Virus record (IMG/VR): IMGVR_UViG_3300045988_165922 | Location: 37,893 to 101,892 of that record | Direction: 5' to 3' (one strand) | Source: a virus | Length of the DNA: 64,000 bases | Part shown: in pieces, positions 25,101 through 56,760 of the stretch | How the letters are laid out: every line of letters begins with the position of its first letter | How positions within the stretch are numbered: the first letter of the stretch is position 1 | The notes under the pieces: generated by a model | What the model was told of the DNA's origin: nothing | Databases searched by the model: none | The model's input: the letters and a program-made list of their open reading frames with translations, nothing else | Made by a program: the position numbers and the translations under genes

Positions 25101-28100
25101 TACGGTGGCTTTCAGGTCTGGTTTCGCGTAACCGTAGTCCACGTGGGTCTGGTTGATGCCGATACCTAGGTGGATGTCGTCGGACGTGTCTGTCGCGTTG
25201 GACTTGATTTTGTTAGACCAGCTGCGCGTGTTCGTCACGTCTTCCAATTTGCCGTAGTAGGTTTTGACTTGGGTTTGCACGCCGTCGCCCGTACTGGTGC
25301 CCGTATTGCGTTTCACCGAAGTCTTGTACGTGCCGGAGTGGAGCAGGTCGAACTCGTAATACCCGTCCTTGTCGGTTTTCACTGTCTTGACGGACTGCCA
25401 AGCACCATTCGCATCCTGCTTGCTGAGGATGACTTCCACGCCTTCGATACGTTCCTCACCATCTCCGATGAGCGTGTTCTCATCCTTATCCCACCAGACG
25501 GTACCGGAAATGCTACCGACGACGACGTTCGCCACGTCAGGCCATGGCTGGTTGCCTGCTGGCTTGCCTGCCGTGTCGGAATAATAGTTGCGGCCCAACC
25601 ATAGCGTGTACTTGTCGTCTTTCACATTGTCGGACGGGTTGAGCGTGATGGTGCCGTTCACTGCGGAATAGGATAGTTTTTCGTCGGATGCGACGACTGT
25701 GCTGGTCAGTCGGATGGCGGTGATGTTCTTCTTGTCCGAATCCGTCAACTTGTCCCATGTCTTCCACTCGTAGTCAGCCGGATTATCCGACTTCTTTCCG
25801 GTGGTGGTTGAATAGTAGACGGTCGTACTGGTCGAATTGTCCATATTGACCGTGATGGGCTGGGTCAGTTCGTAGGAGCCATGATAGTTGCTGTATCCAC
25901 GCTCATATTCGACCAGCTTGTCCTGCACGTACTTCTCATCACCATTCGCAGGAAGCAGTAGCATGCTATCCATGGTGCCGGTGTGACCGCCGCCCTTGCC
26001 GTACACGTTGAACTCCCAAGTAAGCGGGTCACCGATTTCAGCCTTCGTGGTCTTCACACGCATGATGCCACTGTTGGTTTCCGCATTGGAGACGGGGAAT
26101 GGGACGCTGGGCGTATTGCTTTTGATGGTTTGGGCTTGCAATGCGCCGTTCTCGTCAACGTCCACGCTCATATTCGCACTGGCGGTCACAGTCCCGGTGG
26201 CGAGATTGGATACGATGCCACTGAAATGCAGGTCAGGCAAAGTGGCCGACCCCATACGGTCTACTTCCGGCGTGACTTTGCCAGAACGTGGCGTGAACAC
26301 GAGATTATTCCCGTCCACTTTCATCTGCCAGAACGAATCATCACAGGTCGGATTGTACAAGCCTTTCGGTTTCGGCACCGTGATGGTCGGCGTCATGCTT
26401 GTATTGGACAGGAGAATGGTGCGCAACTGTTCCGTGACCGTATAATCCACTCGCATGCCGGGAGTCAAATCGACTGCGCTTCCGGACGGGTGATTGGAAC
26501 TGTTGTTCGCATACACTTGATTGCCTTCACCATCGTAGGCTTTCAGACTGATGTCGATACTGGTGGTCGGGTCTACCGGCTTGGCAATCCACACCCAATT
26601 GGTGACGCTCGCCTTATCGTCTTCGGTAAGCCATGCGGTCAGCGTATCCAAAGCTTCCACATTGCCTTTGGACACGTCGGCTATGGCGAGCGTGTTGAAC
26701 GTGACCTGAACGTTCGGCGCACCCTTTCCTAAAGTCAACGTGTCGGGGTTGAACGTCACCCGAATCTTCTTGACGTTCGGAGCGTCCGTGTCGGATGGTT
26801 CCCCGTCATGCCAATTGTCTTTGCTATCAGCCCATTGAACTTTGTAGTCGGAAACCGGAGCACCGTTCTGGGTGACTTCCAAGCTTCCATCCCACCGCAT
26901 GCGCGTATTATCCCACTCATCCTGCATGGTCGGCGTAGTGTTTTTAAGCTTGTCCGCAGTAACGTTCGCCGCATACATTTCCAAAATGGTTTTGACTTGC
27001 GTTCCACGGGACACGGTGTCGCCGGAACCGTCGGAATAGTAATGGTAGATGTCGGCTTTGCCTTCGGCGGCGTCGAACGTCAGATTCTCCTTGTCGAACA
27101 TGGTCTTGGACGCAGTGTTAGGACGTTGCAGTCCTTTGCCGAACAGTGGAATCTTGCCAGCTGGAGTCGGCTTGAGCCGTTGGATGATGGCTCGTGACCA
27201 GTCATTGTTCGCGTACGGGTAGCCGACGCGGGCACCCGTATCCTTGTTGTAGGTGCTCTTGTCCCGTCCAATGTTCCAGCCGGGTTCGCCGCCCTTGCCC
27301 ATGTTCAACAGTGCGTTGCCGTTATCGTCTTTGACGCTGAACACGGTTTCGTCGGGAACAAGGTGGACATCGTAATATTTGACGTCTCCTTCTTTCATGT
27401 TTTTGAGCGCGTCGGTTCCGGCGGGAATCCTGTAGCTGATTGTCGCCGCCGTACCGTTTTTGCCACTGGATACGGTCAAATACTGTTCTTTATCACTGTT
27501 ACGGGTAATCCTCTGACCGCCTACAGTCCACACGGTGCCCTGCGGGAAGTCGGAAATATCCACTTTGGTAGTCCAATCGATGCTGGTGGACGCGCCCTTC
27601 GTGGACGAATAACCCGGATAGGTCAACGCGTCGGTACGAATAGTGAAATCACCGGTCGCATCGGTGTTCTGACTCCAATAAGTACGATGCTCATACGAGT
27701 ATTGGCCTTTCACCGGATTGCCGCCATTGTCAATGACCAAGTCAGCCGCCGGAGCGGATACTACAGTCAGCTCATCCGTACGATACGTGGTTGACGTTCC
27801 ACCTTCGCGGGCGACGACGATTTTCGGAATCTGACCCGGCTTGACCAAGCCTCCCGTGTCTTTTGCTTTCAGATAGAAGGTTTGGGTCATGGTTTCCACG
27901 CCACCGGCTGGAACCGTGTAGGAGCAGGAGCCGTCACTGTTTTTCTTCGCGGTGACGAGTTGTCCCGGCTGGCAGAAGCCACCACCGTCAGCAGTCTGCA
28001 AATACGGCGCGTCATCCAAGTCGAACTTCACGTTGATGGTACGCTTGCCCGCCGCGTTGAAGTTCAACGTGAGAGAATATTCGACCGTATCACCGGATGC

Positions 28101-28358
28101 GACCACGCCATCGGTAGGGGAATCATCGCCCGTGGCGAACCCGTTCTTCGAATTCACGAACGTTTGCGAACTCGTGCCATGCCCCGTACCGTCGGCTTTC
28201 TTAACGATTTTCGCAGTAGCATATGCGGGTTTCAACTCGTCCGCATGCGCTTTCGGAGAGGCTACCGGATTGGTCATGCATATCAGGCCGGATGACAGTG
28301 TGGCGATTGCGGCCAATAATGCTACCGGATGTGCCACATGCTTTTTGAGAATACCCAT
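22158..28358 (-). CDS. giant sortase-anchored surface protein / putative pilus tip adhesin with RCC1 beta-propeller repeats and CnaB-like domains, 2066 aa
   Basis: signal peptide; HSLALDSEGHLWAWGGNGSGQLGDGTT RCC1 repeats; CnaB-like GKYIFERL / GYYEFDLL; C-terminal MPHTG followed by TM and RKKEEQ sorting signal. Confidence 0.8.
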   Translation of the reverse strand: MGILKKHVAHPVALLAAIATLSSGLICMTNPVASPKAHADELKPAYATAKIVKKADGTGHGTSSQTFVNSKNGFATGDDSPTDGVVASGDTVEYSLTLNFNAAGKRTINVKFDLDDAPYLQTADGGGFCQPGQLVTAKKNSDGSCSYTVPAGGVETMTQTFYLKAKDTGGLVKPGQIPKIVVAREGGTSTTYRTDELTVVSAPAADLVIDNGGNPVKGQYSYEHRTYWSQNTDATGDFTIRTDALTYPGYSSTKGASTSIDWTTKVDISDFPQGTVWTVGGQRITRNSDKEQYLTVSSGKNGTAATISYRIPAGTDALKNMKEGDVKYYDVHLVPDETVFSVKDDNGNALLNMGKGGEPGWNIGRDKSTYNKDTGARVGYPYANNDWSRAIIQRLKPTPAGKIPLFGKGLQRPNTASKTMFDKENLTFDAAEGKADIYHYYSDGSGDTVSRGTQVKTILEMYAANVTADKLKNTTPTMQDEWDNTRMRWDGSLEVTQNGAPVSDYKVQWADSKDNWHDGEPSDTDAPNVKKIRVTFNPDTLTLGKGAPNVQVTFNTLAIADVSKGNVEALDTLTAWLTEDDKASVTNWVWIAKPVDPTTSIDISLKAYDGEGNQVYANNSSNHPSGSAVDLTPGMRVDYTVTEQLRTILLSNTSMTPTITVPKPKGLYNPTCDDSFWQMKVDGNNLVFTPRSGKVTPEVDRMGSATLPDLHFSGIVSNLATGTVTASANMSVDVDENGALQAQTIKSNTPSVPFPVSNAETNSGIMRVKTTKAEIGDPLTWEFNVYGKGGGHTGTMDSMLLLPANGDEKYVQDKLVEYERGYSNYHGSYELTQPITVNMDNSTSTTVYYSTTTGKKSDNPADYEWKTWDKLTDSDKKNITAIRLTSTVVASDEKLSYSAVNGTITLNPSDNVKDDKYTLWLGRNYYSDTAGKPAGNQPWPDVANVVVGSISGTVWWDKDENTLIGDGEERIEGVEVILSKQDANGAWQSVKTVKTDKDGYYEFDLLHSGTYKTSVKRNTGTSTGDGVQTQVKTYYGKLEDVTNTRSWSNKIKSNATDTSDDIHLGIGINQTHVDYGYAKPDLKATVDKTVTGTNCTDTKCVINWDVKVQNKGKSTEKAPSVPPLKTFAAGGAHSLALDSEGHLWAWGGNGSGQLGDGTTTARNTPIEVKPDTTFTQVSAGGAHSLALDSEGHLWAWGGNGSGQLGDGTTTARNTPIEVKPDTTFTQVSAGGAHSLALDSEGHLWAWGWNNYGSLGVSSNKNSLKPLLIKVYSTDMFTQIAARDSSSFALDSDGHRWAWGNNEHGSLGIGYENTCVNVPIKVKSDVTITQIEGRLALDSGGRLWTWGYNHDGTGTDQSTPILVSDGHVWKSGVQVVPDTSTESSGTSRFDTSSVVSDRMSADVHDVTATAGTVSIESGGAKQVATSGDHKFVLTNEGLLYAWGNNQYGQLGFKPDSTNTSTPVNVNKPTIINGSWLKVAAGGKHSAAISTDGHLYTTGWNSRGQLGTGDTDNRFEWTEVASDKTFTDVACGNQFTVAIASDGTLWATGNIGNKTYTSLTQISSVTSTQVSASMDSFIALTKNGGSLYAGASTALTPKGSGYMQVAAAFGQVYALTNSGTVQPVATLNRDGYSPNVSSLKDITLISGGYQTLYAIDKNQHLWASGWNGDGQLANGKTGNGMYWTDDSTGNNTDIIGTPVDTGIIASDVAGGDRDVLILGKQVMIAGFDPYGDGKTGGARSIGLKGMAVSSDPTAVPVEPSSETTENGLTTRTYNLPYSIEPGGYVIYHFTGTVDRETADMTGKDQTYIDEWVKKNTKTILNQAWFDSEHTPYSGTPHASGKNKPNTPDATKLDANTNDVTGNPTCRTDTDYTEEGRQHWFSTSDEDSCDQVGTIITPTTTAKKLGSISGLYWEDTNKNGIQDEGENTHFAGQTVILTDENGKQLATTKTDKDGKYIFERLDANGNKYRIQFTKVNHRDFTTPDVGDKTPAADGSSTDSDAYTDEANKLTITLTQDAPTKEHVDAGVLPETWLATMPHTGMGLLLPLLMLVSISGLVAAIILLRKKEEQ
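24600..24975. repeat. ~2.5 tandem, near-identical 150-bp DNA repeats, each encoding one 50-aa RCC1 blade
   Basis: copies start at about 24621, 24771 and 24921 and are essentially identical at the DNA level. Confidence 0.8.
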
Positions 28359-29263
28359 TAGTGTTCCTTCTTTGCGTGGTTTTTTCTACGGATGATGAGA
28401 ATGGTGATGATGATTACCGCAAGCCAGAAGCCGCCGACGTACAGTATGAGCCATTGGTTCGTGTGGTCTTTCGGCGCGTTTTCGGGTCTGGGTGCGGGGT
28501 GCGGCATGCTGGTGCGCGTGCCGGTCACTAGGAGTCGCTTGTTGTTGATGCCGTATGGCGTGCAGGTTAGGAGTGTGGCGAGGTCTTTTCCGGCGACGAT
28601 TTTCAGTTTGGTGAAATCGGATGGGTCTACCACATCAATGCTTGTGACCTTGTAGGCGAGCGTATGTCCGGCGGTTATCAGATAGAAGACGTCACTTTTT
28701 TTGGCTTCACTGCCGAAGCCTCGTAGCTTGTCGAACATGAGCTGGTCTGCCAAACCCGTGTGCGCGGATATGACAGTATGCGTGTTCTTGCCGCCGACGG
28801 GGAGACTGGAACCATATAAGTGTCCGGCTCCAGCGGCCAACACGTTTTGCGACGTGCCATGCCGGATGGGCAGGTTGATGCCCAAGCGTGGATATTTGAT
28901 GGTGGCCATGACCCCATCCTTGGGGGTGGATAGTTGCTTCCGATACGTGTTGTCCGTTTCGGACTTGTTGACGCCTGTCCAAGGGTCTTCCGCCTCACCA
29001 AGAATGGGCTGGCCTTCCTCGTATAGGCGTTGATTGTAGGCTTGCGCGTCCGCATACTCTTGGGCGATTCGTTTCACGTCAGTGTTTTCCACGGCTTGCG
29101 CGTGGGAGTCGGTCAACCGGTTGGATTGGCTGCTGTTCGAAATCATGAGAATGAATGGGATGGTTCCGGACAGGGCGGATAGGATTAGGCAGAGAAGTCC
29201 CGCTATGGCTCGATTTCCCAAGCCTTTCGGTTTCGCCGTATGTTTTCCCAAAACCCCTCCCAT
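28358..29263 (-). CDS. class C (pilus-specific) sortase
   Basis: TLLTCTPYG catalytic motif, conserved His and Arg, C-terminal TM; stop overlaps the adhesin ATG (TAATG). Confidence 0.8.
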   Translation of the reverse strand: MGGVLGKHTAKPKGLGNRAIAGLLCLILSALSGTIPFILMISNSSQSNRLTDSHAQAVENTDVKRIAQEYADAQAYNQRLYEEGQPILGEAEDPWTGVNKSETDNTYRKQLSTPKDGVMATIKYPRLGINLPIRHGTSQNVLAAGAGHLYGSSLPVGGKNTHTVISAHTGLADQLMFDKLRGFGSEAKKSDVFYLITAGHTLAYKVTSIDVVDPSDFTKLKIVAGKDLATLLTCTPYGINNKRLLVTGTRTSMPHPAPRPENAPKDHTNQWLILYVGGFWLAVIIITILIIRRKNHAKKEH

Positions 29264-29398
29264 GCGGTTATAAAGAATCTAAAAGGTGTCGTGTCGATAT
29301 TTGGGTTCCCGACACGACAAGCGGAACATTTCATGCTTTTCCAACCGTCAAACGGTCAGAAAAGTTTTCTCATACGGCAGTATTCCAATCTTCCAATC

Positions 29399-31093
29399 TC
29401 ACGCCTTGCGACGAAGCAGCAGGGCGGAAGCGCCAGCCAACAGGACGGTCATCACGCCGAAGATGGACAGCCAGACCGCACCGGTCTTCGGCATGTCAGC
29501 GATGTTGCGGGCGTTGATGACGGTCACACCCATCTTGTCAACGTTCTCGGAAGCCAGATTGTTGGCGTCCTTATCGAACTGGCTGAGCATGTAGGAGCCG
29601 TTCGACTGGTTCACCTTGATGGTCAGGGTGAACTGCGGCAGGATGGAGCCGTTGAACGGACTCTTTGTCTCCTTGACCGTGTACTTGCCGTCGAGGCCGG
29701 TCAGCGTGAGCACGCCATTGCTAGTAGCGACGCTGGTGACGGTGTCGGTGGTGCCGGTGCTCTCGGTCAGGTCGGCCTTGCGGTAGGTCAGGCCGTCGGA
29801 GGACTTGACGAACCTGACCGGGGTGGTGGTCTGGTCGCCCTCGTACACCTTGAACTCGGCTCCGGCGAGCGGAGCGTTGTTCGTGTCGTGCTTGGTGAGG
29901 GTGAACTTGCCGACGTACACCTTGTCGGTCTGGCCCGGGGTGGTCTCATGGTCGGTGACGGTGTTCGGATTATGCGAGTATTCGACCTCGTTGGTGTTGG
30001 CGTCGGCGGTTCCGGAGACGGCGTTCTTGTTCACGTACATGCCGTACTTGACGTCAACGGCGGCATCGACCGGGAACTTGGCTTTCATCGCCACAATGTC
30101 GGATGTGGTGGTGGAGTCACCGGTGGTCGGAGCGAAGATGATGTGGAACTTGCCATCCTCAGTAGTGACCTTGTAATCGGTGTCGCAGATGAGGGTCTTA
30201 CCGTCCACGGTCACGACCATGTTGTCCTTGGCCGCGTCATAAGTCAGGCCCTTGGAATACGTATCGTTGATGGCGTAATAGTACTTGTCGTAGCCAGTCC
30301 AGTTCGGCACTTTGCTGGTCATTTCGAAGCTGACCTTCTTGCCGATAGCGGTTTCGGCGGTCGCGCCACTGTTTTCGACGGTGCCGTTTTCGGCGGCGGT
30401 AATCTTCTTCGTGACGGTGGTGCCGTGTACCTTATAGTCCACGGTGCCCAGCGTGTAGGTCTTGGCGCCGTTCTTCAACGTGGTCTTGCCATCGATGCCG
30501 GTGCCGTTGAACATGACGATGGACGCCTGACCGGTCTTGGTGGTGTCCACGACCGCGTACACGCCCGGACGGACAGAAGCGGTCATATGCTTGGCGTCGG
30601 TGCCCTTGGCGAACGCGGTGCCCTTGTCGCCGATGACAGCGGCCTCGTTCTTCAACTGGTCGATGAAGTCACGAAGCTTGCCAGCCCACGGACTGTTCTC
30701 GGAATCAAGGAGATTCTGCACGACCCACACCATCGGATTGGACGCATTATAGTCGTATCCGGCAGTCTGGTCTTTCTTGGACTTAGTGTCAATACTGGCT
30801 TTAGTCAATGCGTCAGCAATAGCAGAAGCCTTGCCCGCGTCAATCAGGTCAAAGCCGGTAATATTAGTACCATCAGTCTGCGCATACGAATAGTAGGCGA
30901 GCGGCACAGCCTTCAACGTGCGATTGCTAATATCACCATTAGCAGCGACGGTCAACGTCTGACGAGCAGCCGCATCAAACTTGGATGCGTCAACACGAGT
31001 ATCAGCCGCCATGGCGGAGCCGACTCCAGCCAAACCCATGGCACCGGCCACAAGCGTGGCGACCGTTGCCTTCAACAGGTTTTTGGTTTTCAC
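29399..31093 (-). CDS. sortase-dependent pilin backbone subunit, 564 aa
   Basis: signal peptide; E-box-like YTVKETKSPFNGS; C-terminal MPKTG + TM + RRKA; GTG start with RBS AAGGAAAG. Confidence 0.7.
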   Translation of the reverse strand: MKTKNLLKATVATLVAGAMGLAGVGSAMAADTRVDASKFDAAARQTLTVAANGDISNRTLKAVPLAYYSYAQTDGTNITGFDLIDAGKASAIADALTKASIDTKSKKDQTAGYDYNASNPMVWVVQNLLDSENSPWAGKLRDFIDQLKNEAAVIGDKGTAFAKGTDAKHMTASVRPGVYAVVDTTKTGQASIVMFNGTGIDGKTTLKNGAKTYTLGTVDYKVHGTTVTKKITAAENGTVENSGATAETAIGKKVSFEMTSKVPNWTGYDKYYYAINDTYSKGLTYDAAKDNMVVTVDGKTLICDTDYKVTTEDGKFHIIFAPTTGDSTTTSDIVAMKAKFPVDAAVDVKYGMYVNKNAVSGTADANTNEVEYSHNPNTVTDHETTPGQTDKVYVGKFTLTKHDTNNAPLAGAEFKVYEGDQTTTPVRFVKSSDGLTYRKADLTESTGTTDTVTSVATSNGVLTLTGLDGKYTVKETKSPFNGSILPQFTLTIKVNQSNGSYMLSQFDKDANNLASENVDKMGVTVINARNIADMPKTGAVWLSIFGVMTVLLAGASALLLRRKA

Positions 31094-41322: not shown

Positions 41323-42045
41323 TCAGATTTTCAGCTCATCGATAACGGAAAGGTCAACACCGTCACCCCAATTATCGACAATCTTGCTCAGGTTCTTACG
41401 CATTCCGGCAGGAGACTGGTCGTCAACCGGACGGCCGAAATTCTTCTCCGGCGCGACCGCGTTCAGCACGGAGAACAGCAGGTTGGTCATATCCTTGCCC
41501 TGCGCGAACACCAACGTCACCTCTGCGGCAATCATGCCCGGCTCGGCTGTAGCCAACCCTTCCAACGCGGACGCGAACTCGGAGATTCGACGTTGGTTCT
41601 TCGGCTCGGTCAATGCGTCCAGCACTGCTTCCGGAGTGCTCTTCTTCGTATCGGTCAACGCCTTGGCGAGAGAAACCACACGCTCGTCATCCAACGATTT
41701 GACAAGAGGAATCAGCTTCTTGCCGAACTGTTCCTCGATGTGCGGCATGGTCTTCTCACGCGGTTTGCGGTTGGAACGGCCCTTACCTTTCCCCTTCGGC
41801 TTGTCTTCGGTTTCAGTGGACTCAGCGTCCACGTTCATGTCCTCACCATCAGCCGGTGCGGACACGTCAGCGACAGGCTCCGAACTCTCCTGATTAAGAG
41901 AATCGGATTCCGTCTGCGACTCCTCGACAGAAGACTGCTCCGGTTCAGCATAATTGTCGGAACCGTAACCATTGTCCTGCTCCGACTGCTGGTTGTTGTT
42001 GAATCCCCAATTGGTGAAGTCTGGCATCATACCTTCTTTCGTCAT
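41323..42045 (-). CDS. protein with acidic disordered N-terminus and a structured C-terminal domain, 240 aa (alternative start at 42030)
   Basis: ORF track; RBS GAAAGAAGG before the second ATG. Confidence 0.5.
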   Translation of the reverse strand: MTKEGMMPDFTNWGFNNNQQSEQDNGYGSDNYAEPEQSSVEESQTESDSLNQESSEPVADVSAPADGEDMNVDAESTETEDKPKGKGKGRSNRKPREKTMPHIEEQFGKKLIPLVKSLDDERVVSLAKALTDTKKSTPEAVLDALTEPKNQRRISEFASALEGLATAEPGMIAAEVTLVFAQGKDMTNLLFSVLNAVAPEKNFGRPVDDQSPAGMRKNLSKIVDNWGDGVDLSVIDELKI

Positions 42046-42149
42046 ATCCAGAGAACACTCCGGTCGTACAGGCTGTTAACAGTCGGAACGAGGTGTTCTG
42101 TATTTTCAATTCACGAGTGTAACGCCCGACGGCATCCCTAAACGAGGAA

Positions 42150-42840
42150 AACGGGAAAAAACAATTCCCCGCGCCGCCCGCGCCGGTAGGCCAACATGAA
42201 TAGCGGATTCAAAAAAAGAAAAGATGACCAAAACCAAAAAGACAAAAAGATAGAAAACACTCCCCACCAAAAATCAGAAAACAAACACCATCACATCAAA
42301 AAGAAGAACCAAGAAAACCAGAAAGAAAAAAGAAAAAGAAGAACATAAGAGAAATAAGAGAAGACATCCTAAGCAAATAGAAGCAACAGAAGAACAGGAC
42401 AACACCCAGCAACATAATCAGGAAAAGAACAACAGAGAAAAGGACAACAGAAGAAGAAACGCCTACCCCTAAATCGGGAATACAACGTATGAAAACAACA
42501 GAGGCAACGCAACCATCCACAAAAGAACAGCACATCAACCCATATGACATACAGAACAGAAGAACGACATCACCAAACACCCCAAGAAACAAGAAAAGCA
42601 ACAAGCCACACCATCACAAGACAAACCGAACATCAGTATCAACACGACGGCACACAACAACCACAGCACAAAACGACAACAGCGAAAGGTCAATAGTCTC
42701 ACTAACAAGGTCAACGACAATCAAAACAAGGTAACATCAATACAGGAACAGCCAATGCAATGAAAAAAGCAACAGCAGAACCAACAAAAAACTAAATATC
42801 AAAAAACTATAAATGCCAGAACTCGGACAAAACCGTAAAC
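42150..42840 (+). other. ~700-bp strand-asymmetric A-rich (A+C-rich, T-poor) low-complexity intergenic tract
   Basis: plus strand is mostly A with very few T; lies between divergent gene starts 42045 (-) and 42863 (+). Confidence 0.7.
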
Positions 42841-42862
42841 GTTCCGATGAAAACAACGGAAC

Positions 42863-44077
42863 ATGACCCATCAGGAGGCGGTCTTATTGGAAAAACGAAC
42901 GATTTCCCTGATAATCGGCTCCGGAGGGCTTCTCACAACCATCAAAAAGGCCCTTACGAGAGCCGGAAACATGCGTTGGCAGGTGCCCGCCGCAGACAAT
43001 ATTCAAGCACAGGCCGACTATCTGATAAGACATCCGGTGCCCTCCGGGTTCAAAGGAATCATCTTCACCGACAGGGCTGGAAACTGGCTTCCGATAGCCA
43101 ACGCCGGATACATGGTCTACTGGTGCAACACCGGTCAGATACCGGTCGGAGCCATGGGCATGAGCGAACAGATGTTACGCATGAGCGTGGCTGATTTCGC
43201 ACGGACTTATTGGGGAATCCAGCTTGCGGACAAGCGTCTCGTAGTCGATATCCTCCAAAACAAAGTGAAGGAGACTGCGGTTCTCCTACCCATCACATCC
43301 AACACCGGAGGAGTGGGGAAGACCACGTCCAGCCGACAGTTGGCAGACCGTGCGTCGCAAGCCGGATTGCGTGTTCTACTCATCGACGGGAACATCAGAC
43401 AGTCCAGCCAACGTAGTTTTTTCGACCCGAGACAGGACAAGCCATTGCATACGATAGCCGACTGGCGACCGGGCATGCAGGTGCAGGTCGGAGCCAATCG
43501 AGGACGTGACCTTGGGGTTCCATACGACATCTGTTTCGCACCTCCAGCAGGCGTCGGAGTGGACTGGCAGATATACCGTCAGTACATCCAAGCGGCACGC
43601 CGACTGTGGGATTTCGTCGTGCTCGACCTTGACCGAATCAGCGCGGACGATTTGGATGATAGGGAGAATATCGCCAACGGTTTACTGCTTCCATACATTC
43701 AATCGGGAGACCCTTGTCTGGTTATCGTCAAGGCTGGAAGGCAGACGCAGATAGACGCGTTGAATCTGCTGACGGCCTTGGCTGAGCATCATCTTCCGAA
43801 GGAACTCATCGGCATCAAGGACACTGTTCCGGTCGGACTGCAAGGTTACAGACGGCTCGACTATACGAGATATGGGACGTTTCTCGGAACCGAATATCAG
43901 ACGGTCGAGGCAAGCAACCATATCGCCAACGGTGATGTCAGATGGGATGACCCCGGTCTTGCTTTTGCTAGGGAGAACATTCTTAACTGGGCTTTGCCCG
44001 ACCGTGGTTTCAATCCGGAAAGATTCAATCCGAACGCTAAGAATAGTGAAGGAAAGAAAGGTCGTGGGCGTAAGTGA
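42863..44077 (+). CDS. ParA/MinD-family ATPase with a ~140-aa N-terminal extension (CpaE/VirC1-like architecture), 404 aa
   Basis: deviant Walker A ITSNTGGVGKTT in mid-protein; Walker B-like VVLDLD. Confidence 0.65.
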   Translation: MTHQEAVLLEKRTISLIIGSGGLLTTIKKALTRAGNMRWQVPAADNIQAQADYLIRHPVPSGFKGIIFTDRAGNWLPIANAGYMVYWCNTGQIPVGAMGMSEQMLRMSVADFARTYWGIQLADKRLVVDILQNKVKETAVLLPITSNTGGVGKTTSSRQLADRASQAGLRVLLIDGNIRQSSQRSFFDPRQDKPLHTIADWRPGMQVQVGANRGRDLGVPYDICFAPPAGVGVDWQIYRQYIQAARRLWDFVVLDLDRISADDLDDRENIANGLLLPYIQSGDPCLVIVKAGRQTQIDALNLLTALAEHHLPKELIGIKDTVPVGLQGYRRLDYTRYGTFLGTEYQTVEASNHIANGDVRWDDPGLAFARENILNWALPDRGFNPERFNPNAKNSEGKKGRGRK

Positions 44078-45722: not shown

Positions 45723-48383
45723 ATGGGTAATCCGAACTGGTATCAGATAACCAGAACGTTGCAACAGTTAGACCCGGACGAGCAACGTTCGAAAGTGGAG
45801 AGCATTCCCGCCGAACTGGATGGTTGCACCCTTCTCCTCATCAAGAAGGGCGAGGAGCCGGTCAAGGAATATATTTACGGCGACGGCGAGGGAATCGTCA
45901 ACGCCGGACAGTTGGCTGGTTTTGACGCGAGACTGGTCGAAGGTGATGAGGAACCGGTGTTGCCGGATGGCGTGAACAGTGCGGCGCATCCTCTCATCCC
46001 GTTCCGTGCCCGGTTGAACTCGAAAAGCAACATGGAGAAAATGCGGACGAACTATTCCGGCGTTCGTACAAGCATCGAGAAGGTCATGCCGCCGGACAGT
46101 TATGTGAGCGTCACGCTTCGCAATCAGGGATACTTCGAGCAGATTCGTATTCGTAATTGGATTAGCGACGAATACAATGCGGTCGAGGATTCAAGCGAAC
46201 TTGCTTCGACCAACACGATGTGCGCCCGTGTGAGTTTCGGTTGCCGTCAGGTTTCGCGTAACCGACAGCTTGCGCAGAAGATTGGTCAAATCATCTGCCC
46301 GCTCATATCCAACATGTCCAGTCATGCGAGCCGTCCGAAATTCGGTTTGCTGTTCGTCAGCATGCTGTTGGAAGTGTTGTCCGTGATTTGGAGTGTGTGC
46401 GGTCTTGCAAGAGGATACGTGATGGATGGCGTGTTCCCATTGTTCCATTCCGCTTGGGGTTTCGGAATCGCGCTTCCACTGCTTGCGGTGACGTTGGTCG
46501 TGTTCCTGTTCCTCATGCTGTTGTCGTGCATTCCGTTCGTTTACATTCCGCGACCTCAGATTGCTGGTGGAGCGGTGGCGCTCATGCTTTACCTGCTGTT
46601 GGGGTTGCTTCCGCTTCCGACGTTCATTCCGATTCTTTTCGTTCCGCTTCTTGTCTTCGCGTTCATCCGTTGGAAGAATTGGACGTTGTGGGATGATATT
46701 TTCCAAACGCCACGCAGATATTATGCGATTGCGAACGACCGTGGCGCGAACGAGTCCGATAATCAGACCCGTCTTGGCGTGCGCACTCATAAGGAGCGCG
46801 TGTCGGCTTATGGTGCGCAACGTACCACGTTGATTCTTTCCCCGATTATCGTAAGTTCCGTGTTCACTCCGGTCACTCAGGGAGTGGCGATGAAACAGGA
46901 GTTGCATCCGGTTCCGGAAGTATTGTCGCATGATGGCATCTTCCTTGGGAAGGATGATACGGGACGTAACTGTTATCTCGACCCGTCGCAATTGTTCGGC
47001 GGTATCGCCATCAACGGCGAGGCCGGTTCCGGTAAGACCGTGCTCACCCATGGCATCAGCCAGTGGGCCATCAGCGCACGCGAGACCACCAGTCCGAAAA
47101 TCTGGGGACGCGACTCCCGTATCATCCATTTTTGGATGAAGGATGATACCGGTGTTAACGTGTTGGAACGTTATCGCAAACGTCACGGTTTCACCAGTCC
47201 GCAACGCGTCGTCTATTTGGCAGACCCGAACAGTGTGTGCTTGGACATGCTTGGCATGAAGGACGGGAACAATGCGATGGAGACTGCGGCGAGCGTGGCG
47301 AAGACCATGCGTTACTCGTTCGATGACGGTGATATTCTGAACGACTCGCAGAACATCATCACCCAAGCGTTGACCATCGGCGTGGCGGTTGACCGTTACG
47401 TGCAGGAGGAGCGTAAGCATAATCCCGAATCCGCGAACAAGGATTGGGAAAGCGAGATTGTGAAACGTTGCCATCAGCTCGAACAATCGTATCCGGGTGC
47501 GGAACAGTTGCGAATGCAGTTGAGTCCAATCGGATGGGCCGTCGTCGCATTATGCGGTTCCGACGGTCAGGCCGGTTCCGCGAAAGCGTTGGGTCATGTG
47601 TGCCGCGCGTTGAGCATGGAATTGAAGAGTGGCTACATGTTCGAGGAGATGACGTATGCCGCCCGTGCCGCCGAGCAATTATATGGCCGTCCGGACGCGG
47701 CTGGTCATACGGTTCGTTCCGACCGTGACATTCTCGCCAAGACGAACGCCTCGTTGAACAAGGTGAACCAGTTCCTTCCCATCGAACACATGTTCACGGC
47801 ACGTCGCGGCAAGGTGACTTGGACGAACATTCTCGACCATGCTGGCGATTATCACATTGTGCTCGCACCGCATAATGGTTATTCGTTGCCGGAACGTATG
47901 GATAAGATTCTCGGCGGCTGGCTCATGTACCGTTTCTGGAATACGGTGTTCGCGCATTGCAAGGATTGGGACAAGGCTGGCAAGTGGACGATGCTCGTAT
48001 GCGACGAGTTGAGCCTGTTGGCTAACGGCAATGACGGTATCATGCCCGCGTTGCGTGAGCAGGGTCGTTCGTTCGGTCTTCTTCTCGTGTTCGCCACCCA
48101 GTATCCGACCCAGTTGTCCGACGCGATGTTGGATTCGTTCATCGGCTATTCGACGTTCATCACATACAATACGACGATTCCGCGTATTGCCGATATGACG
48201 GCGAAACGTTTGACGAACAATGATGGTGAGGATGGTTGGCGTTCGGGCGCGGTGATGAATCTTCCACGTTATGCGGCGGCTGTTCGCACTCGAACCCAAG
48301 AACAGTTGCAACCGACGTTCCTTGTTCATGTGAACGATTTCGATAACGGTTATCGCAATGGTGACATGGATGATGATGACTAG
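45723..48383 (+). CDS. FtsK/VirD4-type coupling ATPase (T4CP-like) with central TM region, 886 aa
   Basis: TM helices at ~200-330; Walker A INGEAGSGKT; Walker B WTMLVCDELSLL; RBS AAAGGAAAGGAAGG. Confidence 0.7.
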   Translation: MGNPNWYQITRTLQQLDPDEQRSKVESIPAELDGCTLLLIKKGEEPVKEYIYGDGEGIVNAGQLAGFDARLVEGDEEPVLPDGVNSAAHPLIPFRARLNSKSNMEKMRTNYSGVRTSIEKVMPPDSYVSVTLRNQGYFEQIRIRNWISDEYNAVEDSSELASTNTMCARVSFGCRQVSRNRQLAQKIGQIICPLISNMSSHASRPKFGLLFVSMLLEVLSVIWSVCGLARGYVMDGVFPLFHSAWGFGIALPLLAVTLVVFLFLMLLSCIPFVYIPRPQIAGGAVALMLYLLLGLLPLPTFIPILFVPLLVFAFIRWKNWTLWDDIFQTPRRYYAIANDRGANESDNQTRLGVRTHKERVSAYGAQRTTLILSPIIVSSVFTPVTQGVAMKQELHPVPEVLSHDGIFLGKDDTGRNCYLDPSQLFGGIAINGEAGSGKTVLTHGISQWAISARETTSPKIWGRDSRIIHFWMKDDTGVNVLERYRKRHGFTSPQRVVYLADPNSVCLDMLGMKDGNNAMETAASVAKTMRYSFDDGDILNDSQNIITQALTIGVAVDRYVQEERKHNPESANKDWESEIVKRCHQLEQSYPGAEQLRMQLSPIGWAVVALCGSDGQAGSAKALGHVCRALSMELKSGYMFEEMTYAARAAEQLYGRPDAAGHTVRSDRDILAKTNASLNKVNQFLPIEHMFTARRGKVTWTNILDHAGDYHIVLAPHNGYSLPERMDKILGGWLMYRFWNTVFAHCKDWDKAGKWTMLVCDELSLLANGNDGIMPALREQGRSFGLLLVFATQYPTQLSDAMLDSFIGYSTFITYNTTIPRIADMTAKRLTNNDGEDGWRSGAVMNLPRYAAAVRTRTQEQLQPTFLVHVNDFDNGYRNGDMDDDD

Positions 48384-52400: not shown

Positions 52401-53450
52401 GGCATGGCTAATGGTGACGCTCCGTTGTCGTCTCCGTTCTCCGGCACCGGTAACGGTGGTTCCGCCGATGGTGACAGTCCTATGCCTTCCCCGACGGCTC
52501 CGACTCCGAATGCCCCGACCCAAACCGGTGGTGCCGGTGGCGCGTCGCCTATTCCGACTGACGGTCAGACCGAGACGATTCCGACTGACGGTCAGACGGA
52601 AACGATTCCGGTGGACACTCCAACTGAATCGGTTCCAGCCGACGCTCAAGGACAGGCTCCGGTGTTGACTGAACAGTCCGCGTTCAATCAGGTTCGTGAG
52701 GGAATGATGGCAGACTTCACGAATAACCAGCACATGTCTCAAGAGGATGCGGAACAAGCTTTCCAAGAAGCCGTGGCCTCCGGTGAAGTCGATGATTCTG
52801 TCCAAGCGTATATGAGCCAAAACAATCAATCTCCTATCGAGAATGTGACGGCTCAACCTGAGATGAATGCCAATCAGCCGGTGTACAACACTGAGACAGG
52901 TGAGATTGTCGGTGAGACCCTACCCTCCGGAACGATGGACGCCGCCGTGTCCGCCGCCTCCACTTGGCAGAAGGCAACCGACAATGCGACTCCGATGCCT
53001 GAATCGGTGAACAATTCACTGCAACAGGCGTACATGCGCGAGAATCCGGTGCAACAGTCTCCGGAGGAGCATTTGCGTATGGCACAGGAGGAGTGGACTA
53101 GAACGACGGGTCTTCCGGGCGATATGATGCCTGCGAGTGCGGAACGTGCCATGAACCCGAATGGAATTCAGCCGAGTAGAGAATTCACGGTTGATTCCGG
53201 TCAGACGCAACAGAAGGGTTCGGTACAGGCGCAAGCTCCGCGACAGCAGTCTCAACCGCAGCCACAAGCTCAGGTAAGACAACAGCCATCGGTTCGAATG
53301 CAACCGCCAACCACACCGTCACCGACCGTCAAACAGCCAGTGGACGCCAACCCGTCAAACCTGACAGGTTTCCCCTCCGTAGGCAATCTTCACATGAAGA
53401 AACCGCCGACCGGAGGACAGCCGACACCCAAACCGCCGTTCATGAAGTGA
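49419..53450 (+). CDS. large polytopic membrane protein with signal peptide, central multi-TM region and Ala/Gln/Pro-rich C-terminus (VirB6/TrbL-like candidate), 1343 aa
   Basis: signal peptide; multiple TM helices at ~530-690; low-complexity C-terminal third. Confidence 0.5.
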   Translation: MNTKYRDPVKRAGRRNLLVILMLCVVMTLFVLPSSVFAAQVNDSTTTITCANGGTDSATSDISSCLPSGRWGNYVGEITSRTEPYSGSDVAGWFSNVKQTISSQTHIVLPNILMQLTQVCWSSALSISQFAASFEPMKQAGANIDSAVSTMVTSLMDGGIPATIAVLGIVAWVGAAGFQIGTVKEASKRIVIMVLCFASITMLGAGAAKTGKNATEPATGSPWWVVQTINNTINKLSVNLDLDGMADSDKNMMSYHHAANGAKTNCQDYLYFMHQAYGEQAKSNGNQDTSNVTKAINRIWEETSLRSFVTMQYGNPQTTGTSSFRIAENARQGYCHVLEMKANTNTTIQKDLTNKAMALHISDQRAKWLFSVDGWVDPRNPYFTDKPLERENATYLSRAGVFWETCGTKRNQEIYARAGWATLINNLGDTGTKNIKNGSTKVRVKIDDLDNVKPTNGGKGVMDTKQNGSEDETIQQTTSVCQTILKQGSVIFSRSTDINKEDDGTYKDQQNDTNWGDSATVGWRFDVPNVSGTWSEANLRDAQDDSTVTGGAKKTIDYMYGNNNVDTLGACGTLIGGIVNLVVWGLLSLVLILTKLMLIMMALFLVVTFLVQAFPIGEKPKTALKNWATYTCQLSMVGALYGALGALATFICGLTLKFTSASSGSFTYQLIAGLSPVLALAAIGMFCSKVLKCGNPFSVNALMGMAGGTAMASGLRKGMHMIGQYRMIRAMRGGFRRGGNGVGRLSTNGTGAGMAHNGARQSATVLSKMSRAQQDSLSQGDRNLMNRNAKEFEAIQTRGRGSKNWARMDKSTVRGSLAGTKLHFEDSTGKFKGRLNEAVSKFHGEDNTEAFAHSIAQRHPGMSLNDVQRKAQRMNHLNNAGRKLQGAARVAGAGAAMAGAGLAFAARAAKSAPLRNVAARGAKVAAKAAVAGALFSNPITAPLGLIAAGKLATDRNLHHGLAVGAGAAMDKIRDIRNAAPGSMRKRDQWRRNVLGMANGDAPLSSPFSGTGNGGSADGDSPMPSPTAPTPNAPTQTGGAGGASPIPTDGQTETIPTDGQTETIPVDTPTESVPADAQGQAPVLTEQSAFNQVREGMMADFTNNQHMSQEDAEQAFQEAVASGEVDDSVQAYMSQNNQSPIENVTAQPEMNANQPVYNTETGEIVGETLPSGTMDAAVSAASTWQKATDNATPMPESVNNSLQQAYMRENPVQQSPEEHLRMAQEEWTRTTGLPGDMMPASAERAMNPNGIQPSREFTVDSGQTQQKGSVQAQAPRQQSQPQPQAQVRQQPSVRMQPPTTPSPTVKQPVDANPSNLTGFPSVGNLHMKKPPTGGQPTPKPPFMK

Positions 53451-55399: not shown

Positions 55400-56269
55400 T
55401 CAGGATACGAACGGGTTCATCGGCTCTTCATCATCTGCCCCACCCGCGTCCGTGTCGGCATCATCGTTACCCGACTGGATGGAAGGGAGACTGGGGCGGA
55501 CTATGACGCCGGTTTCCGTGATTTCGACTTTCAATTCCGGCCATGCGAGCTGAATCTTCTCCAACGCTCTTCTGAACTTGCGTCTGAATTCACGCATCGG
55601 ATACCCGTCATACTTGAACTGCATCAACAGAGCTTCCCATGTTACGCGGGTTTCACGTCGGGCACCGTTCGCGCGGAACGCGAGCCACTGGTAGATGTCC
55701 AAGGCGAGGGCGTCACTGCGAAGCCGACGGACGATGTACGGGTTGAGTGGCACGCAGTTCTCGGTCAGCAGCGCCCACATCTGGGGAGAGAATTCTATGA
55801 ACGACTTCTTGTTTTCGTCGGTCCCGTAGTTGAGCGCCACGGTGTTGGCGACAAAGAACGAGTGGGCTATGAATCCGTCTGCTGACCAGTTTTGGAGGAT
55901 GATGGAAGTGGTGGCTAGGTTCTTAACCATTTTCATCACATTATTCTTGTTCGACCCGGAATATTTGATTCCGACGCTATTGCAGAACGAGTTATACGTG
56001 TCGTCCAAGTAGACGGTATGATGCTCCACGTCCACGCAGTCGCTCCCGTTCTTGATAAGAGAGCGAATGTGGAGGAGGAACATTCTGGGGGCCGCACCAT
56101 AAGCCCATTCCCCGTTGGAGGCTGAGACGGTGATTGACGAGTTCCCGTTCGTCTTCCTAACGGATGGCGAGTCCGGTTTCGACTGTGGCAGGAAGCTCAG
56201 CTTTGACATCACGGACGGGGCGTAGCGGTATGCGTTTGACTTGTCGAGGTCTTTGCTATCATAGGTCAT
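55400..56269 (-). CDS. plasmid replication initiator (Rep) candidate, 289 aa
   Basis: located directly below the iteron array and AT-rich DUE; RBS AAGGAACTGTGGTCAC. Confidence 0.55.
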   Translation of the reverse strand: MTYDSKDLDKSNAYRYAPSVMSKLSFLPQSKPDSPSVRKTNGNSSITVSASNGEWAYGAAPRMFLLHIRSLIKNGSDCVDVEHHTVYLDDTYNSFCNSVGIKYSGSNKNNVMKMVKNLATTSIILQNWSADGFIAHSFFVANTVALNYGTDENKKSFIEFSPQMWALLTENCVPLNPYIVRRLRSDALALDIYQWLAFRANGARRETRVTWEALLMQFKYDGYPMREFRRKFRRALEKIQLAWPELKVEITETGVIVRPSLPSIQSGNDDADTDAGGADDEEPMNPFVS

Positions 56270-56448: not shown

Positions 56449-56582
56449 AAAGTTGGAACTTTCGACACGGAAAGTTGGAACTTCTGACACGCTAAGTGGG
56501 CACTTCTGACACGGAAGTTGGAACTTTCGACACGGAAAGTTGGAACTTCTGACACGGAAAGTTGGAACTTCTGACACGCTTT
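56449..56582. repeat. iteron array: ~6 direct repeats of a 21-22 bp unit (aaagttggaacttctgacacgg)
   Basis: tandem direct repeats visible in the sequence; one degenerate unit (ctaagtgggcacttctgacacgg). Confidence 0.8.
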
Positions 56583-56619
56583 CGACCTGAAACGCCTACT
56601 CCCATAAGGGATTTCGACA

Positions 56620-56760
56620 CCTGCAAAAGGTATACAAAAGATTACAAAATATTAATAACCCTTGTATTCCCTTCTTTTTTCAAAAAACAAGTTTTTTTAA
56701 AAAGAAGCAAAAAATCAAAAACAGAATAAACCCATTTTTTAGATTTCATGTTTTGAAGAG
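56620..56760. other. AT-rich DNA-unwinding-element-like region of the putative oriV
   Basis: ~75% A+T with A/T runs, immediately beside the iterons. Confidence 0.5.

Follow-up and report, generated by a model that had tools for sequence, protein, structure and literature searches.

The locus and its neighbouring genes

The stretch of DNA analysed here, called the window in the following, is 64,000 nucleotides long and is part of an approximately 220 kb relative of the conjugative Bifidobacterium megaplasmid pMP7017. This relation was found by tblastn only; searches of PLSDB (near mode) and of phage records (distant mode) gave no nucleotide matches to the window. Ahead of the gene that opens the main backbone operon, in the intergenic region between the divergent starts of 41323-42045 (minus strand) and 42863-44077 (plus strand), the window contains a non-coding tract of 650-700 bases (42150-42840), the plus strand of which is rich in A and poor in T. 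The genes and features of the locus are:

41323..42045, minus strand: divergent 240-aa gene, encoding a disordered acidic N-terminal half, a basic KPKGKGKGR patch and a helical C-terminal domain
42046..42166, minus strand: left spacer, candidate promoter and 5' UTR of the divergent 240-aa gene
42084..42111, plus strand: weak terminator-like hairpin and T-run, CGGAACGAGGTGTTCTG TATTTTCAATT, just left of the tract (consensus scan)
42147..42170, no strand assigned: GAAAACGGGAAAAAACAATTCCCC, conserved GAAAACGG motif with a GGGAA/TTCCC hairpin
42167..42186, plus strand: GC-rich block at the 5' edge of the tract with two copies of CCCGCGCCG (TRF, 9-nt unit, two copies)
42183..42217, plus strand: conserved module GCCGGTAGG-N-AGCGGATTC, with an A-run behind it (19 aligned instances)
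42210..42685, plus strand: tract core, A-rich, T-poor and of low complexity, delimited by composition
42686..42737, plus strand: three direct repeats at 21-nt spacing, AAGGTCAAT (42686), AAGGTCAAC (42707) and AAGGTAACA (42728)
42738..42862, plus strand: putative A-rich 5' leader of the ParA-like gene, from a presumed transcription start
42863..44077, plus strand: TadZ/ParA/MinD-like ATPase gene, 404 aa, with weak CbiA/ParA P-loop matches in Pfam and NCBIfam

An earlier note on this DNA had stated that a ParA/VirC1-like gene follows the tract. This is upheld, as the family searches and Foldseek both point to a ParA/MinD-type ATPase: the AlphaFold model of the 404-aa protein (pLDDT 85) retrieved ParA/MinD folds, including a full-length match to the two-domain protein 3fkq. 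In pMP7017, the homologue of this gene heads a co-directional array of ~45 kb. The T4CP gene named in the same note did not hold up. The protein in question is an 886-aa P-loop protein without family match, and its assignment as VirB4 or T4CP was rejected because no match in Pfam, NCBIfam or PDB was obtained even with a profile of nine sequences. No relaxase family match was present among the flanking genes. The 240-aa neighbour was considered as a DNA-binding protein and dropped, since it belongs to no family and its fold was neither informative nor recognisable as DNA-binding. A role of the tract as reverse-transcriptase template (poly-A cDNA) was likewise discarded: the RT gene (19006-20235) lies 23 kb off and has generic RT matches, and pMP7017 possesses the tract but no annotated RT.

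Composition of the tract

Sliding-window analysis of composition and skew confirmed an A-rich, strand-asymmetric tract in the divergent intergenic region. Its plus strand consists of 51.8% A, 24.7% C, 15.3% G and 8.1% T, and the richest 300-nt window reaches 57.7% A with 7.3% T. The low T content noted earlier is thus correct, whereas the estimates of about 60% A and 18% C have to be replaced by ~52% and ~25%; the window itself was measured at 53% GC and not at the 60% assumed for the replicon. In 200-nt windows, A is sustained above 42% only at 42086-42953 across the 64 kb, and in 600-nt windows the A fraction has its maximum at the tract (0.543 vs a mean of 0.229, sd 0.053). The 64 kb maximum of the 200-nt AT skew (0.844, at 42262) and the minimum of the GC skew (-0.438, at 42505) are also located here, and the tract is the lowest-GC 500-nt stretch of the window (39% vs 53%). 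A T-rich counterpart was not detected by the composition scan of the 64 kb. Within the core, a purine-rich (A/G) part comes first and is followed by an A/C-rich part with more C than G; the C/G ratio is ~2 at 42400-42800.

Conservation across lineages

The ParA-like protein of the window is indexed in 969 contig-collection blocks, and the retrieved contigs are human gut metagenome assemblies. Contig searches with the full-length ParA-like alignment were dominated by generic P-loop patterns; the C-terminal half worked on the metagenome contigs. An A-rich, T-poor tract of 170-940 nt was present at the same place and in the same orientation upstream of the TadZ/ParA-like gene in all 15 lineages, including the most distant one, in which the ParA-like protein is only 47% identical. 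Over these lineages, 100-nt windows reach A contents of up to 45-64% and T contents down to 0-10%, and T in the tract stays at 3-13% in backgrounds of 53-64% GC. In the 190 kb of pMP7017, the tract (within 52,500-53,400) is the only non-coding skewed stretch longer than 340 nt, and also the lowest-GC 500 nt. The Paenarthrobacter ParA-like gene has an upstream gap of 115 nt without a tract.

The sequence of the core is not maintained. Core identity between lineages amounts to 64-66% vs 60% for a shuffled null, whereas the same lineage pairs show 86-88% identity in the ParA-like gene and 89-90% over the final 200 nt ahead of its ATG, more than in the coding sequence. With unconserved core sequence and conserved flanks, selection, if any, acts on bulk composition. 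Near-identical plasmids differ by many homopolymer-length and larger indels in the tract, and a 109-nt insertion carrying a second GC-block module, bordered by CGCCGGTAG, was found in L004-6 and L008-10. Both the range of lengths and the frequent indels would also be expected of a weakly constrained region prone to slippage. In L015, L017, L018 and L084 the tract stops ~300 nt short of the ATG, which leaves these lineages without an A-rich leader. It is the composition of one strand that persists. A non-coding, asymmetric feature that is kept in this way makes a function via one strand (RNA or ssDNA) or via bulk DNA properties reasonable.

Coding capacity, RNA structure and DNA shape

No credible ORF had been noted in the tract, and this was corroborated by stop codons in all six frames (4-13 per frame) and by 1-nt indels that shift the frame between copies in near-identical plasmids. 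There is no conserved ORF and no frame common to the relatives. A translated low-complexity linker (K/E/T/N/Q-rich) or small protein, which the earlier note had considered for related elements, is practically ruled out by these stops and indels. Stop codons are rare in T-poor DNA, hypothetical ORFs have been placed within the tract by gene callers and PGAP in some relatives, and coding A/C-rich linkers exist elsewhere on pMP7017; however, the called strand and frame vary between relatives, and the frame continuous with the ParA-like gene is interrupted.

The lack of tandem periodicity was borne out as well: TRF detected weak, degenerate, short-period arrays with scores of at most 55 and short repeat families. 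Curved DNA was ruled out, as the A-runs show no phasing at 10-11 bp. The purine content is 64-74%, and uninterrupted purine runs reach at most 24 nt in the window, with maxima of 10-27 nt among relatives (16-27 nt in 12/15 lineages), which argues against the proposed H-DNA for the tract as a whole. Promoter avoidance via TpA depletion was rejected as a special signal, because the TpA odds ratio in the tract (0.54) equals that of the plasmid background (0.55) and thus gives no signal beyond base composition.

As RNA, the plus strand of the tract forms the least foldable 150-nt series of the window, with minimum free energies in the core of -0.9 to -7 kcal/mol per 150 nt vs a background of -42 +/- 8, and it is predicted to be ~80% unpaired in all lineages. 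Folding of the minus strand is less extreme. Rfam scans (E-value and gathering threshold) gave zero matches, no tRNA was found, and the consensus scan detected no plus-strand terminator inside the tract. The structured RNA suggested by the earlier note is therefore not supported, and a structured cis-regulatory leader RNA (attenuator, riboswitch or conAn-type) was rejected on the same grounds of near-zero folding energy, missing terminator and missing Rfam match. Nor was a promoter or terminator found that would delimit a discrete sponge sRNA, and no motif occurs at fixed count or spacing. In the window, RNA from the plus strand of the tract would offer at least 80 nt of unstructured, untranslated sequence with more C than G, a candidate rut-type feature. 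Such an excess is found in the central fifths of the tract (C 0.26-0.36, G 0.11-0.23) in 12 of the 15 lineages and is weak or absent in L015, L017 and L084.

Edges of the tract and candidate promoters

The left spacer is 80-83% identical between lineages with unalignable tract cores. It harbours a candidate -10-like hexamer, TACACT, on the minus strand (42121-42116), 76 nt before the ATG at 42045, and 9/9 lineages checked have a TAnnnT hexamer at a distance of 35-108 nt ahead of the minus-strand gene. The terminator-like sequence at 42084..42111 is kept in lineages WIN, L020, L035, L038 and L039. The consensus scan flagged the adjoining site at 42147..42170 as terminator-like on the minus strand; its 8-mer GAAAACGG is common to 8 of 13 independent lineages. 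The GC-rich block, which occurs once in the window, was recognised at the equivalent place in 15/15 lineages by reading the sequences, and as exact 8-mer (CCCGCGCC or CGCGCCGG) in 7-8 of 13 independent lineages.

The module overlapping this block has the conserved consensus GCCGGTRGGTYC-N-AGCGGAMYC, with AGCGGA at 42202-42207 in the window, and it is duplicated ~110 nt apart in sister lineages. It is partly palindromic (GGTTCC/GGAACC and GGGTCC/GGACCC), and a hairpin is predicted in about half of the 19 module instances. A conserved hairpin is not supported by RNAalifold, which gave no consensus structure, and the single folds were inconsistent. Searching the tract edges for inverted repeats, as proposed in the earlier note, thus revealed a short one at the 5' edge, but not one that folds consistently. 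The 34-bp promoter motif of the pMP7017 regulon (PMC10832533) is absent from the window and stands beside the tract only in L015 and L017.

At the right edge, the candidate -10 hexamer of the ParA-like operon, TAACAT (42732-42737), falls within the last of the three direct repeats, AAGGTAACA. The three AAGGTCAAY repeats at 21-nt spacing overlap this candidate promoter and are restricted to window-like lineages. The hexamer itself is more widespread: a TAnnnT sequence at -113 to -167 from the start codon was present in 14/15 lineages. No plus-strand TAnnnT exists between 42101 and 42694, and most lineages have a plus-strand stretch of 340-700 nt free of it. In L013, L014, L016, L035, L039 and L043 the hexamer is the sole plus-strand TAnnnT from the tract start to ~30 nt before the ATG; the lineages outside these six have 1-5 further matches in the last 260 nt. 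A conserved rightward -10 hexamer at the left end was absent in L011, L012 and L014. From their positions, the conserved TAnnnT hexamers may act as promoters. A hairpin read from the sequence of the leader, GTTCCG...CGGAAC, abuts the ATG.

Replication and transfer functions

A lagging-strand or replication origin, suggested by the earlier note, is not supported at the tract. The iteron origin of the window consists of six 22-nt iterons at 56449-56578, spans 56449-56760 together with an AT-rich segment, and adjoins the RepA_C gene (55400-56269); a repeat array of the iteron type is missing from the tract, and the core contains no specific repeat of the kind expected in a parS/parC-type partition centromere. 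The pMP7017 origin has been mapped to repB, ~65 kb away from the tract (PMC8313286). This plasmid was typed as non-mobilizable (PLSDB/MOB-suite). Elsewhere it carries RepA and two FtsK/SpoIIIE-type genes around an AT-rich gap, a more typical candidate neighbourhood for an oriT.

A proposed strand-polar insulator and leader

We propose, with a probability of roughly one in three (0.35), that the tract is a composition-selected, strand-polar insulator and leader in an operon control region. It would make up most of the control region of a long operon headed by the TadZ/ParA-like ATPase gene in megaplasmids of the pMP7017 family. From left to right, this region would comprise the candidate promoter of the 240-aa gene, the GC block with the AGCGGA module, the tract of ~170-900 nt, a conserved -10-like hexamer some 130 nt ahead of the start codon and an A-rich 5' leader that is present in most lineages. 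The scarcity of T on the sense strand would mean that almost no -10 hexamers and no hairpin-plus-U-run terminators arise, and rightward RNA crossing the tract would be unable to fold. Since such RNA would be untranslated and, in most lineages, contain more C than G in its central part, it would offer a natural loading zone for Rho. Potentially, RNA does cross the tract and Rho acts on it; spurious transcription running rightward would then be halted, leaving the operon, probably a conjugation operon, to its own conserved promoter alone. The leader of that promoter would stay single-stranded, which may secure ribosome access. Should the hexamer at -131 be the sole rightward promoter, its transcripts would leave out most of the tract, and a role at the RNA level would need read-in transcription. 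The pMP7017 transcriptome paper (PMC10832533) does not mention the tract region, and its supplement contains no promoter or transcription-unit table for the locus.

Alternative explanations

It is possible, at odds that remain low, that the tract acts as DNA, as the most easily melted AT-rich duplex between back-to-back promoters. It might be the binding platform of a protein with a nucleoid-associated, partition or regulatory role, for which the 240-aa and the ParA-like proteins are possible candidates, or a sink for negative supercoils from divergent transcription, with the strand asymmetry keeping the duplex free of promoters and hairpins. The GC minimum shared by the window and pMP7017, the position of the core between two candidate divergent promoters, the short conserved motifs at both edges (GC block and AGCGGA module; AAGGTCAAY repeats) and the purine runs in 12/15 lineages are in line with this, and binding of partition-type proteins to control or oriT regions of conjugative plasmids is documented (PMC12421886). 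However, the core has no repeated binding motif and no helical phasing, its sequence turns over freely, the 240-aa protein lacks a recognisable DNA-binding fold, and a duplex role alone does not demand extreme A/T strand asymmetry. A further reading is a tract without specific function, a slippage- and duplication-prone spacer that perpetuates its own composition while only the promoters and operators at its edges are functional; a core identity close to the shuffled null, the many indels including the duplication-like 109-nt insertion, the variable length and the degenerate arrays found by TRF would all be expected of it. We regard this as rather doubtful. Useless DNA tends to be deleted from bacterial genomes, yet all 15 lineages, down to 47% protein identity, retain a long non-coding region of the same polarity and extremely low T content, and no second tract of this kind exists in the 190 kb of pMP7017.

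A cis element defined by single-strand composition, a 'T-free runway' kept unfolded, seems unlikely; it would be either the first DNA out of or into a putative oriT in the GC-block module, or an RNA titrating a host or plasmid RNA-binding factor. Still a little less probable is an oriT or ssDNA signal proper, with a nick site in the GC block and the 5'-edge inverted repeat and the tract as an easily unwound, non-folding strand. The divergent intergenic location beside a ParA-like gene has a similar layout to VirC1/overdrive of Ti plasmids and to StbB next to oriT in R388, there is one tract per plasmid, and the conserved module is partly palindromic. Moreover, the plasmid family is conjugative without a known relaxase or oriT and was scored non-mobilizable by MOB-suite (PMC10832533). 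Against this, the inverted repeat is found inconsistently, some lineages carry the module twice, the flanks encode no recognisable relaxase-like gene, and the neighbourhood with RepA, the two FtsK/SpoIIIE-type genes and the AT-rich gap is a more typical candidate in pMP7017; known oriTs are also sequence-conserved and span a few hundred bp, in contrast to 500-900 nt of freely evolving low-complexity DNA. Very unlikely is a trans-acting, A-rich unstructured RNA that serves as sponge or decoy for a single-strand RNA-binding protein or an endoribonuclease toxin. The plus strand is extremely unpaired and rich in short A-rich words (GAAAAC, AAGAA, ACAAC, CATCA), and several toxin-antitoxin systems are present in the plasmid family (PMC10832533), but a left-end promoter, a delimiting terminator, an Rfam match and a shared motif at fixed count or spacing are all missing, and the only non-coding RNAs reported by the pMP7017 transcriptome study are tmRNA and the manA motif (PMC10832533).

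Significance

To our knowledge, no conjugative plasmids other than megaplasmids of the pMP7017 type are known in Bifidobacterium. Among the non-coding features of their backbone, the tract is the most conspicuous. It is unique per plasmid and kept in every lineage, yet goes unmentioned in the two functional papers on pMP7017. The tract bears on how a large operon is insulated or switched on, or on where transfer starts; if the 'T-free runway' at an oriT were true, it would expose the relaxase/oriT system of the bifidobacterial megaplasmids. In addition, the tract illustrates cleanly how non-coding DNA of bacteria can be conserved in the composition of a strand and not in sequence, and searches for RNA or DNA motifs based on homology or structure are blind to conservation of this kind.

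Comparison with known systems

Like H-DNA tracts, the locus contains, near its 5' end, uninterrupted purine stretches of 16-27 nt that are of the (GAA/GAAA)n type; unlike H-DNA mirror repeats, it is 64-74% purine, the larger 3' part is A/C-rich, and long mirror symmetry is missing. With oriT-proximal regions such as Agrobacterium overdrive/VirC1 and R388 oriT/stbABC, which lie next to ParA-like genes, it shares the divergent intergenic position by a ParA-family ATPase gene on a conjugative plasmid and a short GC-rich, partly palindromic module at one edge. One tract strand is T/G-rich, as is the overdrive core TGTTTGTT. In contrast to oriT regions, a recognisable relaxase and a consistent inverted repeat are lacking, and we know of no characterised oriT or overdrive element with the length and free sequence turnover of the tract. 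The AT-rich unwinding element of the pMP7017 repB origin (PMC8313286) is similarly a local GC minimum in a GC-rich replicon. The actual origin (56449-56760 in the window), however, has 22-nt iterons and a strand-symmetric AT-rich segment adjoining the rep gene, whereas the tract is iteron-free, strand-asymmetric and 14 kb away.

The proposed insulator and leader has two counterparts. As in rut regions and insulators, RNA from the tract would be unstructured, untranslated and, in the window, richer in C than in G, and it would lie where read-in has to be stopped ahead of a conjugation-type operon. It is A-dominated rather than C-rich, unlike rut regions, and the excess of C over G is not found in all lineages. 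In Tn916, the insulator is an intrinsic terminator (PMC11658703). In pLS20, a 456-nt leader precedes the conjugation operon (PMC13401043) and contains the zipper-type attenuator cATTpLS20, with the conAn antitermination system (PMC13401043, PMC8191782). The pLS20 leader has conserved stem-loops and an intrinsic terminator, unlike the tract, which has practically no RNA structure, is devoid of U-run and sequence conservation and lies mostly upstream of the only conserved -10-like hexamer. Common to both is a non-coding region of several hundred nucleotides that immediately precedes the opening gene of a very long co-directional operon, in each case on a large conjugative plasmid of Gram-positive bacteria, where it presumably keeps the operon tightly controlled.

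Composition and conservation of the A-rich tract

Genes 41323-42045 (−) and 42863-44077 (+) start back to back, and the spacer between their starts holds an A-rich, T-poor tract. The tract is real, conserved and non-coding, and had not been described before in the backbone of bifidobacterial megaplasmids. An earlier note had described a strand-asymmetric A-rich tract at this place; the kind of feature was recognized correctly, its figures were not. The plus strand of window 42150-42840 contains 51.8% A (not 60%), 24.7% C (not 18%), 15.3% G and 8.1% T, and the whole window has 53% GC (not 60%) with A about equal to T. In 200-nt windows, A exceeds 42% at a single place in the 64 kb (42086-42953), and no T-rich mirror counterpart was found there. 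Sliding-window analysis bore out the skew, since the 200-nt AT skew maximum (0.844) and GC skew minimum (−0.438) of the whole window both fall in the tract, which is also its lowest-GC 500-nt stretch (39% GC). The tract is an extreme case of the general purine or A loading on the plasmid's sense strands. The same note had seen no tandem periodicity by eye, and TRF and a repeat finder returned only short, weak, degenerate repeats. The T residues lie mostly in ATC or CATCA contexts, and TpA is depleted, though not more strongly than elsewhere on the plasmid (ratio 0.54 vs 0.55). Throughout the plasmid window, sense strands carry more A than T; the cumulative AT skew has its minimum near window 37128, with genes mostly on the minus strand to the left and mostly on the plus strand to the right.

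For comparison, loci were collected from the conjugative Bifidobacterium breve megaplasmid pMP7017, one B. longum plasmid, six relatives obtained by protein look-ups and 75 metagenome loci, and the 1300-nt stretches preceding the ParA-like gene were resolved into 15 lineages. On the sense strand of the ParA-like gene, all 15 carry a tract that is rich in A and poor in T (173-942 nt, 42-51% A, 3-13% T), even where ParA-like protein identity falls to 47% and the surrounding sequence reaches about 64% GC. When the window is compared with three related lineages (L035, L038 and L039), DNA identity is 86-88% in the ParA-like gene, 89-90% (above the coding sequence) in the final 200 nt before the ATG (42663-42862) and 80-83% in the left spacer, while the tract core reaches 64-66% vs 60% for shuffled sequences of the same composition. 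Judged from these alignments, composition and polarity are retained, and sequence and length turn over fast, largely via indels. In the complete pMP7017 (190 kb) the tract (52,584-53,360) is the sole strand-skewed stretch above about 340 nt and again the lowest-GC 500 nt; the shorter skewed segments inspected there are mostly 5′ parts of genes for K/E/T/P-rich linkers.

A coding reading is excluded. As the earlier note had held, there is no credible ORF: all six frames of the window tract contain stops (4-13 each). Among 10 copies whose ParA-like proteins are identical, the tracts are set apart by numerous homopolymer indels of 1 nt and by a 109-nt insertion with CGCCGGTAG on either side. A translated linker of a longer gene was likewise not found, as no frame is consistently open across the 15 lineages and the one that runs on into the ParA-like gene is broken. 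Hypothetical ORFs have been annotated or called inside the tracts of relatives:

L011 5351-5626 (pMP7017 53034-53309), WP_172685975.1
L017 3354-3788
L005 9321-9608

Their strands and frames differ between relatives, and they are probably artefacts of stop-poor skewed DNA.

Anatomy of the intergenic region

In all lineages a GC-rich block of CCCGCGCCG-type repeats precedes the 5′ edge of the tract and is followed by a conserved module. The elements discussed here are:

42167-42217, GC-rich block and module (GCCGGTRGGTYC, about 10 nt, AGCGGAMYC, A-run)
42732-42737 (+), TAACAT, candidate −10 hexamer of the ParA-like gene (TATCAT, TAATCT or TAATAT in other lineages)
around 9150-9270 in L004-L006 and L008-L010, and also in L020, L038 and L039, the 109-nt insertion with a second module

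Some sister lineages have two copies of the module, spaced about 110 nt from each other; among plasmids that share an identical ParA-like protein, some gain the second GC-block/AGCGGA module through the insertion, which lies between the direct repeats. Some module instances contain a GGTTCC/GGAACC-type hairpin, with inconsistent single folds and no RNAalifold consensus. The tract starts A/G-rich, and 12 of the 15 lineages have uninterrupted purine runs of 16-27 nt; it then becomes A/C-rich with C>G.

On the plus strand most lineages lack TAnnnT over 340-700 nt, and 14 of 15 then have it between −113 and −167 relative to the start codon; on the minus strand it is found 35-108 nt ahead of the divergent 240-aa gene. 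This conservation suggests two back-to-back promoters with the hexamers as their −10 elements, in which case the tract core (about 42210-42685) would lie between the two and the last ~125 nt would form an A-rich 5′ leader. In window-like lineages TAnnnT sits in the last of three AAGGTCAAY repeats with 21-nt spacing; these repeats, within 42663-42862, are likely an operator overlapping the candidate promoter. A GTTCCG/CGGAAC hairpin in the same segment abuts the ParA-like ATG.

Folded as RNA, the plus strand of the tract is less structured than anything else in the window, with minimum free energies of −0.9 to −7 kcal/mol per 150 nt (background −42 ± 8) and about 80% of bases unpaired. This holds in all lineages; the minus strand is less extreme. 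The tract matches no known RNA family (Rfam) and is not a structured leader; a structured A-rich RNA had been raised earlier. A-runs phased at 10-11 bp were not found in the tract, and therefore intrinsic curvature is not indicated. With 64-74% purine, the tract as a whole is not the H-DNA that had been considered.

Genomic context

No nucleotide match to the window was found in plasmid (PLSDB) or phage collections. The 404-aa ParA-like protein shares ~57% identity with the 'CobQ' protein that pMP7017 and B. longum megaplasmids encode, and the exact protein is indexed in 969 blocks of a contig collection, the retrieved contigs being human gut metagenome assemblies. The element is a plasmid-like contig of ~206-228 kb (L001-L010), and the window encodes a sortase, a pilin, a giant RCC1-repeat surface protein, DnaB, a RepA_C replication gene and a reverse transcriptase. 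The window thus seems to represent a lineage of its own, and a common one, within the pMP7017 family.

22158-31093 (−), sortase-dependent surface cluster: 2066-aa RCC1-repeat + SdrD/SpaA protein, sortase-family enzyme (Pfam Sortase domain), pilin backbone protein
56449-56760, candidate iteron-type replication origin: six tandem 22-nt iterons AAAGTTGGAACTTCTGACACGG, then a strand-symmetric AT-rich segment; adjoins the RepA_C-family gene 55400-56269 (−)
19006-20235 (−), 409-aa reverse transcriptase: Pfam RVT_1; PADLOC gave only generic RT and several DRT-class models

In pMP7017 a similar surface cluster is instead placed downstream of the array headed by the ParA-like gene. This co-directional array of ~45 kb includes P-loop ATPases, methyltransferases, and pilin and sortase genes. 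According to PMC10832533, the core genome includes type IV secretion components, although that source gives no detail on the ParA-like locus. A confident model of the ParA-like protein (pLDDT 85) resembles ParA/MinD folds and can be matched from end to end with the two-domain protein 3fkq of Eubacterium rectale, which we take to be a TadZ-type protein. No family could be assigned to the neighbouring 240-aa, 398-aa or 886-aa proteins.

A lagging-strand origin had been proposed earlier, but the tract is not the replication origin: 56449-56760 looks like the plasmid's iteron-type origin, and that of pMP7017 was mapped at repB (PMC8313286), ~65 kb from its tract. A link to the reverse transcriptase, 23 kb away, was rejected because pMP7017 has the tract without an annotated RT; the neighbours of the reverse transcriptase gene gave no family match.

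Possible function of the tract

The tract is strand-specific, conserved in composition and not in sequence, placed in the control region of a long operon and present once per plasmid; therefore a bulk polar function is the best explanation. It is tempting to speculate that it serves as insulator and leader, a reading that we prefer tentatively (probability about 0.35). A T-free sense strand would hardly be able to generate −10 hexamers or terminators, and any rightward RNA over the tract would neither fold nor be translated, would be mostly C>G, and is therefore proposed as a Rho substrate. Expression of the operon would then depend on the conserved proximal promoter alone, with an open leader. 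If no rightward transcription enters the tract, the same facts fit a role at the DNA level, which we regard as possible though doubtful: between the divergent promoters, AT-rich DNA free of promoters and hairpins would act as a platform or a supercoil sink. That the tract is a slippage-prone spacer without function agrees with its sequence turnover but is at odds with its universal retention, and we consider this unlikely.

In a plasmid family without a recognized relaxase or oriT so far, the tract might be an oriT. Its inverted repeat is not consistent, though, duplication of the module occurs and the free sequence turnover is unlike known oriTs, which makes this reading improbable. An alternative oriT candidate is pMP7017 97,260-97,895 (L096, a pMP7017 region, 47260-47895), the second-lowest-GC 500 nt, between the non-essential repA and two FtsK/SpoIIIE-type genes, a layout reminiscent of relaxase-oriT-coupling-protein modules in Gram-positive ICEs. 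A sponge RNA would have to be made without a delimiting promoter and terminator, and is very improbable.

For the insulator and leader function, the closest kind is found in the long leaders and insulators that precede Gram-positive conjugation operons, as in pLS20 (PMC13401043) and Tn916 (PMC11658703). However, those act via defined RNA structures, whereas the tract has no such structures and is built on composition.
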